32,000 bases of DNA from Inquilinus limosus (GTDB taxonomy: Bacteria > Pseudomonadota > Alphaproteobacteria > DSM-16000 > Inquilinaceae). Position 1 is the stretch's first letter. Each line of letters opens with the position of its first letter. This document shows, piece after piece, positions 1-5,488 of this stretch. The notes beneath the pieces were generated by a model, which was not told where the DNA came from, ran no database searches, and saw only the letters and a list, made by a program, of their open reading frames with translations. The translations under genes and the position numbers were made by a program. The stretch is from NCBI RefSeq assembly GCF_051487185.1, contig NZ_JAHVDK010000007.1, positions 158,241-190,240 on the forward strand, in the 5' to 3' direction.

Positions 1-1
1 T

Positions 2-154
2 CGGCAGATCCCCCGCGGCCAGATGGGCACCGGCTGGGATGTTGCCAATGCGGCGCTCTTCCTCGCCTCGGACGACGCCGACTTCATCACCGGACAATCG
101 CTCGTCGTCGATGGCGGCGTGACATCGCAAACCTGGCTCGACTCGAACGCCTAA
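2..154 (+). CDS. short-chain dehydrogenase/reductase, C-terminal fragment (gene begins upstream of the window)
   Basis: Frame 2 is open from the window edge to TAA at 152-154. The translation ...[33 protein letters not shown] matches the SDR C-terminal block. Confidence 0.8.
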
Positions 155-231
155 CGGGATAGGCCGCTGGTCTCACCTCCCGGCTTCCGGCGCCCGCCCG
201 GCCGAATCTACTTCGAGAACTGGACAATCAG

Positions 232-1137
232 ATGAACAAGAAGCTGATCATAGACGTGCGTATGAACGAATACGCGATGCGGGGCGACAATCCCAATGTT
301 CCGTGGTCGCCTGCGGAAATCGCGGAAGATGCCGCCGAGTGCTACGAGGCCGGGGCTACCTGTGTGCATTTCCACGGTCGGGATGGACGGACCGGAGAGC
401 CGGCCAACAGCATCGAGACCTATGCCGAGACGATCACCCGCATTCGCGAAAGGGCCGGCGACGTGCTCGTCCACTCCACGCTCGGTTACGTCACCCTCAC
501 TCCAGCCGAAAGGCGCGTCGACAACGTCCTGCAACTCGCGCGCAACCCGCTGACGCGGCCCGACATCGCTCCGGTCGACATGGGAACCCTTAATGTCGAC
601 GTCTACTCCGCCGAGATCAAGAATTTCGTCACCGACGACCTGGTTTTCCACAACCCCACGCGCCTGCTCAAGTATTTCACCGAGCAAATCCAGGCTGCGG
701 GTGTGAAGACCATCCACACCTGCTGGAACATCGGCTGCACGCGGACCGTCCAAGCGTTCATGGAGATGAAGCTGATCAAGGGCCCAGCCTATCTCGCTCT
801 CTTGATGTCGGAGAGTGGCCTGCTCGCGGGCCATCCCGGCAACTACAAAGGGCTCGCGGCCCATCTCGACTTCCTCCCGCAGAACGGGCCCGTCGAATGG
901 ACGACCGTGGTCTACCCGGGGAGCATCCAACCCGTCGTCACCATGGCGATCGCCGAAGGCGGCCACCTCTCCTTCGGGCTCGGCGATCACCCGTATCTCG
1001 AACTGGGCGGCAAGCCTCGCAACGCAGATATCGTCCGTCACATCATCAAGCTCGCACGCAGCATGGGCCGCGAGATCGCCACGCCCGCCGAGGCACGCGT
1101 CATGTTGGGCATTCCGAGGCCGAACTCCGCGGCGTGA
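232..1137 (+). CDS. beta-keto acid cleavage enzyme family protein (BKACE/DUF849, 3-keto-5-aminohexanoate cleavage-like), paralog 1
   Basis: 301-aa ORF. The N-terminal block PWSPAEIAEDAAECYEAGATCVHFHGRDG carries the HxH motif and the tail GGHLSFGLGD...ATPAEARVMLGI is typical of DUF849. Confidence 0.85.
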   Translation: MNKKLIIDVRMNEYAMRGDNPNVPWSPAEIAEDAAECYEAGATCVHFHGRDGRTGEPANSIETYAETITRIRERAGDVLVHSTLGYVTLTPAERRVDNVLQLARNPLTRPDIAPVDMGTLNVDVYSAEIKNFVTDDLVFHNPTRLLKYFTEQIQAAGVKTIHTCWNIGCTRTVQAFMEMKLIKGPAYLALLMSESGLLAGHPGNYKGLAAHLDFLPQNGPVEWTTVVYPGSIQPVVTMAIAEGGHLSFGLGDHPYLELGGKPRNADIVRHIIKLARSMGREIATPAEARVMLGIPRPNSAA

Positions 1138-1201
1138 GGCGAAATCTCCAGGAGCATTCGGGAACGCGAGAGGCGCGCGAAGCCGCGCCAAAGGACCTGC
1201 G

Positions 1202-2980: not shown

Positions 2981-3879
2981 TGGCAACGCGCAAGGTCATC
3001 GTTACGGTGGCGCCGACCGGCGGCTTCGCCATGAAGGCGCACAATCCTCATCTGCCGACCCAGCCGGAGGAGATCGCCGAGGACGTGGTGCGCTGCTTCA
3101 ACGCGGGCGCCAGCGTCGCCGCCCTTCATGCGCGCAATGCCGACGACAGCGCGACCTGCAATCCGGAGATCTATCGCCGCATCAACCAACTCATTCGTGG
3201 ACGCTGCGACATCGTCCTCAACAACTCCGGCGGTGGGGGCCTGAACGGCGACATGGCTCGGCCTGTATCCGATGGCTTGTGGGAAGTCGCCTTGGAGGAG
3301 CGCATGAAGGCCGCCGATGGCGGTGCCGAGATGGTGACACTGAACGCTATGACCGTGCTCGCGACCCTTGGTGGACGCGATACCCTGCTCACGGCGTCGC
3401 CGACGCGCTCTCGGGAATTCGCGCAGCGCCTGCGTGATCGCGGGATCAAGCCGGAATGGGAAGCGTTCAGTCCTGCTCACCTCTTGCAGGACATGCGCAC
3501 GCTCATCGACGAGGGCCTCGACGAGCCGCCCTATTTCGTCAATCTCTGCCTCGGCCTCCATCATGTCTTCCAGGGTGCTGTCCCCTACTCTCCGAAGATG
3601 CTCCAGGTGATGGTGGAGTTCCTGCCATCCCAGTCGCTCTTCACGGTCAGCGCGGCGGGAGACGCGCAACTACCCGCGACCGTGCAGATGCTTCTGCTGG
3701 GCGGCCATGTACGGGTCGGCCTCGAGGACAACTTGCACTACCGCCCTGGCGAGCCTGCCACGAACGTTCAACTGGTCGAGCGCATCGTCCGTATCATCCG
3801 CGAGCTCGGTATGGAGCCGGCGACGCCCGCCGAAGCCCGCGAGATGCTAGGCCTGCCGCGCCGGCGGCCGGAGGCGTAA
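2980..3879 (+). CDS. beta-keto acid cleavage enzyme family protein (BKACE/DUF849), paralog 2
   Basis: The in-frame ATG at 2980 shares its A with the kinase TGA stop (2978-2980). Supporting sequence: MATRKVIVTVAPTGG..., PEEIAEDVVRCFNAGASVAALHARN, GGHVRVGLEDNLHY, ATPAEAREMLGL. Confidence 0.85.
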   Translation: MATRKVIVTVAPTGGFAMKAHNPHLPTQPEEIAEDVVRCFNAGASVAALHARNADDSATCNPEIYRRINQLIRGRCDIVLNNSGGGGLNGDMARPVSDGLWEVALEERMKAADGGAEMVTLNAMTVLATLGGRDTLLTASPTRSREFAQRLRDRGIKPEWEAFSPAHLLQDMRTLIDEGLDEPPYFVNLCLGLHHVFQGAVPYSPKMLQVMVEFLPSQSLFTVSAAGDAQLPATVQMLLLGGHVRVGLEDNLHYRPGEPATNVQLVERIVRIIRELGMEPATPAEAREMLGLPRRRPEA

Positions 3880-3881
3880 GC

Positions 3882-4592
3882 ATGCTCGAGCTCTTCCGAA
3901 TGGACGGCGAGGTCGCGATCGTCACCGGTGGGGCGAGCGGGATCGGTGCGGCAGTCGCCTCGGCCTTCATTGACGCCGGCGGCACGGTCGAGATCGCGGA
4001 CATGGCTGGCTCAAGCCCGCTCGACGTGACCGACGAGGCCGCCGTGGAAGGCTTCTTCGCCGATGTGCACCATCGATATGGACGGCTCGACATCCTCGTT
4101 AACAACGCCGGGATAGCCGTCCGCCGACCGACGATGGAGCTCGGTGTTGACGAGTGGAACCGAGTCGTCGCAGTCAACATGACCGCAATGTTCATCTGTG
4201 CCCGCGCGGCCGCCCGATGGATGATGCCGCAAGGCGGCGGACGCATCGTCAACACCGCCTCCATCATGGGTCTCTCCGGCGGCCTCTATCCGAACGTCTC
4301 CTACCAGACCACGAAGGGCGCCATCGTCAATCTCACCCGCGCCCTCTCCGTGGAATGGGCCAAGGTGGGAATACGGGTCAATGCCGTTGCGCCGACCTAT
4401 GTGCGTACGCCGCTTACCCAGGAGCTGCTCGACCAGATGGATATTCTCCAAGCGATCACGGCCGCGACGCCGATGGGGCGCCTCGCCGAAGCGCAGGAAG
4501 TGGCTGCTGCTTTCCTCTATCTCGCAAGCCGGGCCTCAGGGATGGTGACCGGCCATACGCTGCCGGTCGACGGCGGCTTCCTGGCGCGATAA
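3882..4592 (+). CDS. short-chain dehydrogenase/reductase (classical SDR)
   Basis: The ATG lies 2 nt after the BKACE2 stop. Motifs: TGGASGIGAAVA, NNAG, catalytic YQTTK (YxxxK), and a PVDGG tail. Confidence 0.9.
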   Translation: MLELFRMDGEVAIVTGGASGIGAAVASAFIDAGGTVEIADMAGSSPLDVTDEAAVEGFFADVHHRYGRLDILVNNAGIAVRRPTMELGVDEWNRVVAVNMTAMFICARAAARWMMPQGGGRIVNTASIMGLSGGLYPNVSYQTTKGAIVNLTRALSVEWAKVGIRVNAVAPTYVRTPLTQELLDQMDILQAITAATPMGRLAEAQEVAAAFLYLASRASGMVTGHTLPVDGGFLAR

Positions 4593-4630
4593 CGCGCGAT
4601 CCGAGGCGGCCCCAAACCGCCCAAGCAGAG

Positions 4631-5488
4631 ATGCTGAAGATGAAGCTTCTTCGCTACGGCCCTCTAGGGCAAGAAAAACCTGGCTTGCTCGATGAAGATG
4701 GAAGCATCCGTGACCTCTCGGGCGTTCTGGATGATATCAATGGAAACGCAATCACTCCCGAAGGCCTTGCCAGGTTGAAGGAATTGGAAGGGTCGCGTCT
4801 ACCAATCGTATCTGGCTCTCCGCGCTATGGCTGTCCCATCGCGAACGTGGGAAAATTCATCGCCGTCGGGCTCAATTATTCGGATCATGCGACGGAAGCA
4901 AAATTACCGATTCCAGCCGAACCTGTCTTATTTTCCAAAGCGACCTCCTGCATTCAGGGCCCAAACGACGACATAGTCATTCCACGCCGATCGAAGAAGA
5001 CGGATTGGGAGGTCGAGCTTGGCGTGGTGATCGGCACACGTGCAGCCTACGTCAGCAAAGAAAACGCCCTCTCCCATGTAGCGGGTTACGTCGTGGTCAA
5101 TGACGTGTCCGAGCGCGAATACCAGATCGAACGCGGTGGCACCTGGGACAAGGGCAAAGGGTGCGACACGTTCGGTCCGATCGGGCCATGGCTCGTGACT
5201 TCGGATGAGATTGGAGATGTTCAAAAGCTGGAGATGTGGCTGGACGTTAACGGCAACCGCATGCAAGCCGGCTCAACGGCGACTATGATCTTCGATGTAA
5301 AGACAATAATCAGTTATATCTCCGAATTCATGACCCTGATGCCGGGAGATATTGTCACGACTGGCACGCCGCCGGGAGTTGGCATGGGAATTCAGCCTGA
5401 GCCGATCTATCTCAAGGCGGGAGACGTGGTGACACTGGGCATTGAGAAGCTCGGCCAGCAGCGACAAAGATGCCGCGCGTATATGTAG
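4631..5488 (+). CDS. fumarylacetoacetate hydrolase (FAH) family protein (2-keto-4-pentenoate hydratase / diketo-acid hydrolase type)
   Basis: Translation M(LK)MKLLRYGPLGQEKPGLLDEDGSIRDLS..., DWEVELGVVIG, GTPPGVG. The start may instead be the ATG at 4640 (MKLLRY). The DNA is clearly less GC-rich than its neighbours. Confidence 0.85.
   Translation: MLKMKLLRYGPLGQEKPGLLDEDGSIRDLSGVLDDINGNAITPEGLARLKELEGSRLPIVSGSPRYGCPIANVGKFIAVGLNYSDHATEAKLPIPAEPVLFSKATSCIQGPNDDIVIPRRSKKTDWEVELGVVIGTRAAYVSKENALSHVAGYVVVNDVSEREYQIERGGTWDKGKGCDTFGPIGPWLVTSDEIGDVQKLEMWLDVNGNRMQAGSTATMIFDVKTIISYISEFMTLMPGDIVTTGTPPGVGMGIQPEPIYLKAGDVVTLGIEKLGQQRQRCRAYM

Follow-up and report, generated by a model that had tools for sequence, protein, structure and literature searches.

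Six co-oriented genes open a 32,000-nt stretch of an Inquilinus limosus contig (NZ_JAHVDK010000007.1, positions 158,241-190,240; "the window" denotes this whole stretch) and encode two short-chain dehydrogenases (SDR1 and SDR2), two DUF849 proteins (BKACE1 and BKACE2), a dihydroxyacetone-kinase-family protein (Dak) and a hydrolase of the FAH family (Table 1). They can be seen as the enzyme half of a TetR-controlled operon, borne on a Trb element, for taking up and degrading a small polyhydroxy (sugar) acid, or the sugar or lactone from which it derives, a reading to which the sequences lend a probability of about one half. The shared orientation, the coordinates and the tight packing given in a preliminary description of this DNA were all borne out by the listing of open reading frames, the raw sequence, and Pfam and NCBIfam scans: the TGA of Dak (2978-2980) and the ATG of BKACE2 (2980-2982) share one A (TGATG), and the TAA of BKACE2 (3877-3879) ends 2 nt before the ATG of SDR2 at 3882. 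The remaining gaps measure 78 nt (SDR1-BKACE1), 64 nt (BKACE1-Dak) and 47 nt (SDR2-FAH). A terminator scan returned no terminator-like site within the cluster above shuffled expectation, and scans of the cluster for consensus promoters and terminators were uninformative.

Table 1. Genes of the operon and the regulator gene that follows it. Unprefixed positions count from the first nucleotide of the window; those prefixed L003 refer to the fetched DNA, which includes 15 kb 5' of the window (window position = L003 position minus 15000).
Feature	Position	Strand	Assignment
TetR regulator, divergent	L003:9952-10608	-	
NMT1/SsuA-like solute-binding protein (SBP)	L003:10818-11807	+	SBP of NitT/TauT-type ABC importer
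Two permeases and ATPase	between SBP and SDR1; ATPase ends at L003:14267		NitT/TauT-type ABC importer
SDR1, full gene	L003:14315-15154 (start 686 nt 5' of the window)	+	adh_short_C2, 195 bits (Pfam, full protein)
SDR1, 3' end only	1-153	+	classical short-chain dehydrogenase
BKACE1	232-1137	+	PF05853, 216 bits (Pfam)
Dak, single-chain	1202-2980	+	Dak1, 383 bits, and Dak2, 163 bits (Pfam)
BKACE2	2980-3879	+	PF05853, 262 bits (Pfam)
SDR2	3882-4592	+	classical short-chain dehydrogenase; adh_short_C2, 191 bits (Pfam)
FAH-family hydrolase	4640-5488	+	PF01557, 234 bits (Pfam)
LysR-type regulator	5650-6552	+	HTH_1 and LysR_substrate (Pfam)

The six genes had been described as the unit; all six are present, but they are the distal part of a bigger one, which begins about 4.2 kb 5' of the window and comprises TetR plus nine or ten genes, the operon having ten genes here and nine in its conserved core. 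The proximal genes specify a NitT/TauT-type ABC importer, whose SBP gene is separated from the divergent TetR gene by a 209-nt spacer with shared motifs across L003:10641-10777. This spacer keeps a TTGACA -35 box (L003:10733) and a Shine-Dalgarno sequence, together with two copies of the motif TATAC...CGTA(T)TGTAAATA; the -35 box and the repeated motif are common to five genomes and probably represent the operon promoter and the TetR operator. A PDB search with the NMT1-type SBP gave one weak match of the nitrate/sulfonate type and no clue to the substrate.

The arrangement recurs well beyond this genome. The nearest homologue of Dak in a search among 5.8 billion proteins is 68% identical and lies on a contig of Corticibacterium sp. 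(L048), where the gene order is TetR, SBP, two permeases, ATPase, SDR, BKACE, Dak, BKACE, SDR. TetR plus nine genes in the same order are likewise found in Bosea lupini LMG 26383 (L052), in Labrys sp. KB_33_2 (L155) and in two Logan assemblies of public sequencing runs (L050 and L156), and the same-order unit is present in GCA_051861005.1 (L051) on a short contig that begins inside the ATPase gene. The proteins of these clusters are 64-83% identical to those of the window, and the flanks are unrelated between genomes. Since at least five other genomes or assemblies, with differing flanks, share this order, the arrangement is not due to chance. The preliminary description had asked whether the BKACE-Dak-BKACE triplet recurs and with which transporters; it does so in several genera, always with the same TetR and NMT1/SsuA-type importer. 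A scan of genome contigs with BKACE1 gave a match in Bosea lupini only.

SDR1 is 79-81% identical to its orthologues in Corticibacterium sp., Bosea lupini, GCA_051861005.1 and the Logan assembly L050, and among NCBIfam subfamilies it comes nearest to glucose 1-dehydrogenase (210 bits, below the cut-off of 215). SDR2 is 73-81% identical to its orthologues; its NCBIfam matches (meso-butanediol dehydrogenase, gluconate 5-dehydrogenase and GolD/DthD) all fall below cut-off, and its neighbours in the PDB are sugar-acid and polyol dehydrogenases. PDB searches with SDR1 and SDR2 yielded no clue to the substrate of either.

What follows SDR2 differs between the clusters: an IlvD/EDD dehydratase gene in Bosea lupini and GCA_051861005.1, the same followed by a tartronate-semialdehyde-reductase-like gene in Corticibacterium, nothing in Labrys, and FAH in the window. 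The inclusion of FAH in the operon set therefore does not hold, as nothing corresponds to it in the other clusters, where the usual tenth gene is IlvD/EDD. Its G+C content at third codon positions is 0.62, against 0.76-0.84 (around 0.80) in the importer and enzyme genes and 0.68 in TetR, and it lacks an orthologue in the genus, whose genomes, this one included, hold another FAH copy 63-67% identical to that of the cluster (at C8:26826-27653 in this genome). FAH is thus clearly a strain-specific add-on at the IlvD/EDD position, a second, divergent copy of separate origin. Against the NCBIfam model of the LRA6 enzyme, 2,4-didehydro-3-deoxy-L-rhamnonate hydrolase (NF053535), it aligns over its full length with 474.5 bits (cut-off 500). 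In Corticibacterium, a stretch 3' of the IlvD and reductase genes (L048:16156-16464) is 44% identical to the first 103 residues of FAH, perhaps as what remains of a FAH gene. The Inquilinus genome does have an IlvD/EDD gene, on another contig, that shares 68% identity with the Corticibacterium copy.

Both DUF849 proteins score above the PF05853 cut-off of 24.8 bits, and neither reaches any of the four NCBIfam BKACE equivalogs. The best solved relative of BKACE1 is the Zn-dependent cis-epoxysuccinate hydrolase CESH[D] (5ZMU; E 1.3e-81, 46% identity), whereas its match to genuine Kce enzymes reaches only an E-value of about 1e-23. In CESH[D] the metal is held by two His and Glu14 rather than by the third ligand of Kce; Arg11 serves as the acid and is positioned by Asp251, while Asp115 and Glu190 are catalytic (PMC6429283). 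Residues R10, E13, H46, H48, D116 and D252 of BKACE1 align with R11, E14, H47, H49, D115 and D251 of CESH[D], and these six are invariant in the 16 family members aligned. The position of Glu190, in turn, is Leu in BKACE1 and Cys, Val or Leu in the others, the glutamate being conserved in none of the 16. At the positions diagnostic of Kce, BKACE1 keeps the H-F-H motif, with Gly in place of Glu230 (GLGD) and Thr in place of the catalytic base Glu143. With a site of the CESH[D] type lacking both glutamates of Kce, the earlier view that the two DUF849 proteins are acetyl-CoA-dependent BKACEs fails for BKACE1, whose residues are not those of a canonical BKACE and do not mark it as an epoxide hydrolase either.

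The wider relatives of BKACE1 sit in other company. A metagenome scan with the family alignment returned 80 loci with relatives of BKACE1, none above about 51% identity, and none of these 80 had Dak, BKACE2 or IlvD nearby (neighbours were identified by tblastn with known proteins, naive calling of open reading frames being unreliable for grouping neighbours in high-GC DNA); the relatives at 40-51% identity, the range that also holds CESH[D], occur in other contexts. Relatives at about 48-52% identity recur with a TRAP transporter: in three loci (L057, L067 and L074) the TRAP genes are followed by RidA, a fused E1-type TPP (thiamine pyrophosphate) enzyme and an HpcH aldolase, and in a fourth (L077) the TRAP genes stand alone. 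These loci constitute a separate uncharacterised cluster, which may be relevant to the natural role of CESH[D].

BKACE2 departs from the Kce pattern at a different point. Aligned with Kce (2Y7D), it has Ala in place of the first Zn-binding His, His46, and keeps His48, Ser82, Glu143, Arg226, Glu230 and Asp231, as seen in its motifs A-L-H-A-R, PEWEAF, NNSGGG and VRVGLED. Each of the two paralogues therefore lacks a different Zn ligand, Glu230 in BKACE1 and His46 in BKACE2. The motif A[VLI]HAR is present in 119 of the 120 BKACE2-type proteins listed, that of the window among them; the others on the list are 61-83% identical to BKACE2 and come from Actinobacteria and from Beta- and Alphaproteobacteria. 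BKACE2 thus belongs to a large "A-x-H-A-R" subfamily of DUF849. Relatives at 64-65% identity in Derxia and Rhodovastum adjoin genes of the 3-hydroxyacyl-CoA-dehydrogenase family, enoyl-CoA-hydratase genes and acyl-CoA-ligase genes, company that is typical of true BKACEs. In a published screen of the family, as summarised in the NetSyn preprint, DUF849 members without a catalytic residue were inactive on all keto-acids and were termed "non-BKACE". The assignment of BKACE2 as an acetyl-CoA-dependent BKACE is rendered uncertain by the change of the first Zn-binding His to Ala; its activity is more probably retained than lost.

Dak scores 623 bits against NCBIfam PRK14479 (cut-off 492) and 542 bits against the TIGR02361 glycerone kinase model (cut-off 575), and its closest solved structure is the Citrobacter dihydroxyacetone kinase 1UN9 (E 9e-82). 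Its translation contains GGGAGHEPAH, NYTGD, GLGIHGEAG and AVGDGDLG, among which we take GGxGHEP to be the substrate loop, GIHGE to hold the substrate-binding His and GDGD, in Dak2, to be the Asp cluster for Mg-ATP. These features identify it, as far as motifs can, as a single-chain ATP-type protein of the dihydroxyacetone-kinase family with its motifs intact. A second, housekeeping Dak, which shares 56% identity with it and is conserved throughout the genus, is also encoded in the genome. In the Dak tree the four cluster members make up a single, weakly supported group (ultrafast bootstrap 59, SH-aLRT 97) inside the radiation of ordinary Daks and apart from the housekeeping clade. No DUF849/BKACE gene neighbours the Dak relatives of 52-59% identity among 400 genomes of the phylum and 100 relatives, and a metagenome relative at 63% identity had no DUF849 neighbour either; therefore, the link with DUF849 is specific to this Dak lineage.

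Looser versions of the module occur in Actinobacteria and within the genus itself. In Amycolatopsis viridis an orthologue of BKACE1 (67% identity) and an SDR stand opposite to the other cluster genes, which are MFS, IclR, BKACE2 (63%), IlvD/EDD, SDR and an HpcH-type aldolase. A second Amycolatopsis assembly has MBL, MFS, Glyoxalase_4, SDR and a BKACE1-like protein fused to a 130-residue domain, then a free copy of that domain, BKACE2 (68%), IlvD/EDD, SDR, IclR and DmpF/DmpG. Neither of these two assemblies has Dak or another recognisable kinase in its module. A genome of the same genus as the window (G401; G401:C81:3000-29134, L153/L154) carries a rearranged module at the corresponding site of a sister mobile element, with BKACE1-like, DctQM, BKACE2-like, IlvD/EDD, DmpF, Glyoxalase_4, three SDR genes, Dak and a sugar ABC importer; adjoining it are a gene with the 130-residue domain in tandem, DctP and an MBL-fold protein. 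The recurrent core is BKACE1 (or BKACE1-like), BKACE2, IlvD/EDD and at least two SDRs, with lactonase-like, aldolase or hydrolase, and transporter genes as frequent companions, and Dak is found in both alphaproteobacterial architectures. The G401 Dak is a long branch in an unresolved node, so that the tree does not decide whether it was recruited independently. That Dak is dispensable in Amycolatopsis argues for a generic product, not a pathway-specific intermediate, as its substrate, and it also scores like ordinary ATP-type Daks; it can be inferred to be a generic triose kinase. The 130-residue alpha/beta domain (L054:7208-8001 in Amycolatopsis, L154:3274-4149 in G401) is absent from the genome of the window; it has no match in Pfam or NCBIfam, and its AlphaFold model, although confident (pLDDT 84.6), gave no match to a PDB fold with an E-value below 0.18.

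In the Inquilinus genome, an MBL-fold gene, a Peripla_BP_4 sugar ABC importer, an SDR and a second NMT1-type SBP lie 5' of TetR (L003:3206-9696). The MBL-fold protein is weakly similar to lactonase, and the orphan SBP shares 56-60% identity with the SBPs encoded in the clusters of other genomes. Labrys has retained the MBL gene in the same position (71% identity), along with what is left of the sugar SBP, a truncated copy at 88% identity; a PDB search with the sugar SBP gave no clue to its substrate. Across the clusters, then, the companions comprise a glucose-1-dehydrogenase-like SDR, the MBL lactonase-like protein, a sugar importer, IlvD/EDD, GarL/HpaI-like or DmpFG aldolases, the LRA6-like FAH and the tartronate-semialdehyde-reductase-like gene, a set that points to non-phosphorylative catabolism of sugars or sugar acids. 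A route like that of carnitine or of lysine fermentation, with which the preliminary description had drawn a parallel, does not fit these neighbours: lactonase-like protein, sugar importer, IlvD/EDD, aldolases of KD-acids and FAH belong to sugar-acid chemistry. Its broader suggestion of an undescribed route for a hydroxy- or keto-acid remains plausible and the gene set is indeed undescribed, but the boundaries, the place of FAH and at least one of the BKACE assignments need correction. No description of this cluster or pathway was found in the literature on BKACE/DUF849 with Dak, dehydratase or ascorbate.

Under the best reading of these patterns, the operon would encode an undescribed catabolism of sugar acids that ends in triose phosphate and pyruvate. 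The NitT/TauT-type importer would take up an anionic substrate, which the adjacent sugar-type importer, SDR and lactonase-like MBL-fold protein could also supply from a neutral sugar by way of its lactone. SDR1 and SDR2 would oxidise hydroxyls to give oxo-acids capable of chelating the metal of both DUF849 TIM-barrel enzymes. BKACE1 might then decarboxylate, hydrolyse or isomerise a 2-hydroxy-3-oxo acid, decarboxylation being the simplest of the three, and would do so independently of CoA because its site is of the CESH[D] type and lacks the catalytic base of BKACEs. BKACE2 probably still performs acetyl-CoA-dependent cleavage of a beta-keto acid, because every catalytic residue of BKACEs is kept except the one Zn-binding His. 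Dak would phosphorylate a hydroxy-carbonyl product at the triose level, dihydroxyacetone or glyceraldehyde, to dihydroxyacetone phosphate (DHAP) or glyceraldehyde phosphate, and the remaining carbon would reach pyruvate through IlvD/EDD dehydratase and an aldolase in other clusters and through SDR and FAH, as a diketo-acid hydrolase, in this one.

The leading candidates for the substrate are C4-C6 acid sugars, such as L-threonate-like compounds, that would give dihydroxyacetone upon 3-oxidation and decarboxylation. An L-threonate 3-dehydrogenase of the SDR type exists, and decarboxylation of 3-oxo acid sugars gives the ketose that is one carbon shorter (Watanabe et al. 2026, PMC12994016). Dihydroxyacetone was reported as a product from threonate by Aspen and Jakoby in 1964, as cited in the same paper, which proposes dihydroxyacetone followed by DhaK as a hypothetical completing branch (PMC12994016). 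A specific version of the scheme may be put forward tentatively, with the odds still well against it: the DUF849 pair would catalyse the C-C-bond steps, so far without an enzyme, of a new oxidative route for C4-C6 acid sugars. In it an SDR would make the 2-hydroxy-3-oxo acid, CoA-independent decarboxylation by the CESH[D]-like enzyme would give the lower ketose (L-threonate to dihydroxyacetone) and Dak would yield DHAP. Ascorbate or 2,3-diketogulonate as the substrate is speculation, as is a sulfonate, which the SsuA-like SBP and the occurrence of IlvD in the sulfo-ED route might bring to mind.

Parallels can be struck with several known systems. The oxidative 2-deoxyribonate pathway (Price et al., bioRxiv 10.1101/205583 / PMC6365646), the only described sugar-acid pathway with a BKACE, likewise combines SDR, DUF849/BKACE, lactonase and dedicated transporters; it has, however, a single BKACE with a downstream glycerate kinase and no Dak, IlvD/EDD or FAH, whereas the present operon has two DUF849 proteins, one of which would be unable to act as a canonical BKACE. 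CESH[D] (Bordetella sp. BK-52 / Alcaligenes) shares with BKACE1 the relocated third metal ligand, Glu14 for Glu230 of Kce, but of its Asp115/Glu190 pair BKACE1 has Leu at the second position. The tetronate pathways (Ltn3D/OtnK/OtnC, PMC12994016) resemble the proposed route in taking an acid sugar to a 3-oxo acid with loss of CO2 and an end in DHAP, and their gene clusters are funnels for C4-C6 sugar acids; they differ in that DUF849 enzymes form no part of them, neither SDR1 nor SDR2 is closely related to Ltn3D, and the DUF1537 kinase, class II aldolase-type decarboxylase and OtnI isomerase of the Otn/Oia (tetronate/apionate) systems are absent from the operon. The non-phosphorylative routes for L-rhamnose (LRA1-6) and pentoses have in common with it a sugar 1-dehydrogenase-like SDR, a lactonase-like protein, IlvD/EDD, an ending by SDR plus FAH hydrolase or by HpcH/DmpG aldolase, and pyruvate as the product, but they need neither DUF849 enzymes nor Dak, and the cluster of this genome is without IlvD/EDD.

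Several observations weigh against the operon being a sugar-acid pathway of this kind. Sugar acids are not the usual cargo of an NMT1/SsuA-type importer, which would suit a sulfonate or some other anion just as well. Neither an L-threonate 3-dehydrogenase (Ltn3D) nor its relative 4DYV appears among the best PDB matches of SDR1 and SDR2. Three acid-sugar kinases of the DUF1537 type are encoded elsewhere in the genome, none of them in the operon, and given these and the housekeeping Dak a threonate route would be redundant. The IlvD/EDD partner lies outside the cluster in this genome, and no genes for handling acetoacetate are linked to it with any consistency, which weakens the case for BKACE2 as a true BKACE.

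Among the competing explanations, one would retain both DUF849 proteins as canonical acetyl-CoA-dependent BKACEs, each fed by an SDR from a 3-hydroxy acid, with Dak handling the triose derived from the acyl-CoA. The SDR-BKACE pair on either side of Dak invites it, as does the deoxyribonate pathway, which employs SDR, BKACE, lactonase and transporters and in which an SDR and then a BKACE yield glyceryl-CoA and acetoacetate (bioRxiv 10.1101/205583); BKACE2, with its Kce residues and relatives in CoA-type contexts, would suit it. Yet BKACE1, with its site of the CESH[D] type, lacks both the base and the metal ligand of Kce; members without a catalytic residue were inactive on all keto-acids in the family screen summarised in the NetSyn preprint; and the cluster has no conserved gene for a thioesterase, a CoA-transferase, a glycerate kinase or the handling of acetoacetate, so that this explanation is unlikely. 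Somewhat more doubtful still is a scheme that moves Dak to the middle of the route, where it would phosphorylate the hydroxyacetyl end of a 3-oxo or 5-keto acid sugar for a DUF849 enzyme then to decarboxylate or aldol-cleave to DHAP, in non-orthologous replacement of OtnK/OtnC (tetronates), OiaK/OiaC (apionate) or IolC/IolJ (2-deoxy-5-keto-gluconate). The known acid-sugar routes do oxidise, phosphorylate and decarboxylate in that order (PMC12994016), and Dak both lies between the two DUF849 genes, its stop overlapping the start of BKACE2, and is found again in the G401 variant. A kinase essential at mid-pathway should, however, be indispensable, and the Amycolatopsis modules do without one; moreover, Dak groups with ordinary Daks without any special subfamily signature, and the acetyl-CoA-type catalytic residues of BKACE2 would be left unexplained.

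That there is no single pathway at all, the genes being a mosaic of separate functions gathered as cargo of a mobile element, might be argued from the strain-specific character of the region beside the Trb genes, from the separate origin of FAH and from the differing tenth gene; but this is improbable, given that TetR and nine genes stand closely spaced in an unchanged order, between different flanks, in five more genomes or assemblies representing no fewer than three other genera, and that the BKACE1-like, BKACE2, IlvD and SDR genes re-associate in other orders in Actinobacteria and G401. The least probable alternative, and a very slight one, is that BKACE1 is a true hydrolase of cis-epoxysuccinate or a related epoxy-dicarboxylate and that the operon degrades epoxysuccinate or tartrate. 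Its nearest characterised protein is CESH[D], with the metal ligands, R11, D115 and D251 all kept, an anion-type importer would suit a dicarboxylate, and the Corticibacterium cluster has its tartronate-semialdehyde-reductase-like gene; the residue that activates water in CESH[D], Glu190, is nevertheless the very one replaced in BKACE1 and throughout the aligned members, and it is hard to see why the breakdown of tartrate would call for Dak or for two DUF849 enzymes.

DUF849 has served as a model family for the discovery of function, in which neither the "non-BKACE" members nor the industrially used CESH[D] have an assigned role. The operon sets one enzyme of each atypical DUF849 type in a conserved, regulated and transporter-linked context, in which the products of the kinase are central metabolites and the candidate substrates are few, and culturable hosts of the cluster exist in Bosea lupini LMG 26383 and Amycolatopsis viridis. 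If the specific, CoA-independent version of the route set out above for L-threonate is correct, it would supply genes for the conversion of threonate to dihydroxyacetone described by Aspen and Jakoby in 1964 and a first physiological function for the CESH[D] family, and a BKACE would be active without one Zn-binding His.

The genomic setting of the operon is that of mobile cargo. DNA shared with relatives in the genus at 92-96% identity ends at L003:2853 and starts again at around window position 5690, at 82-90% identity. Between 6.8 and 30 kb of the window lie the transfer genes for TrbI, TrbG, TrbF, TrbL, TrbE and TrbB, along with a small MFS/DHDPS/LacI cassette, a transglycosylase, an S26 peptidase, DUF2840, ParA and RepA. 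Because the genus-shared DNA breaks at these points, the segment from the MBL gene through FAH can be taken as cargo peculiar to this strain, located where the Trb genes end a conjugative element, and the sister element of G401 has its variant cluster at the same junction. Thus, a complete catabolic module travels as conjugative-element cargo, with sister elements of the genus carrying alternative versions of it. The LysR gene that follows FAH sits at the junction of cargo and backbone, and a LysR homologue also borders the G401 variant; the LysR protein is at most a possible regulator of the operon. Farther along the element, at window positions 16128-19888 and between trbB and the RHH/traG side, the cassette noted above is of lower GC and consists of an MFS transporter, a DHDPS-family protein and a divergent LacI.

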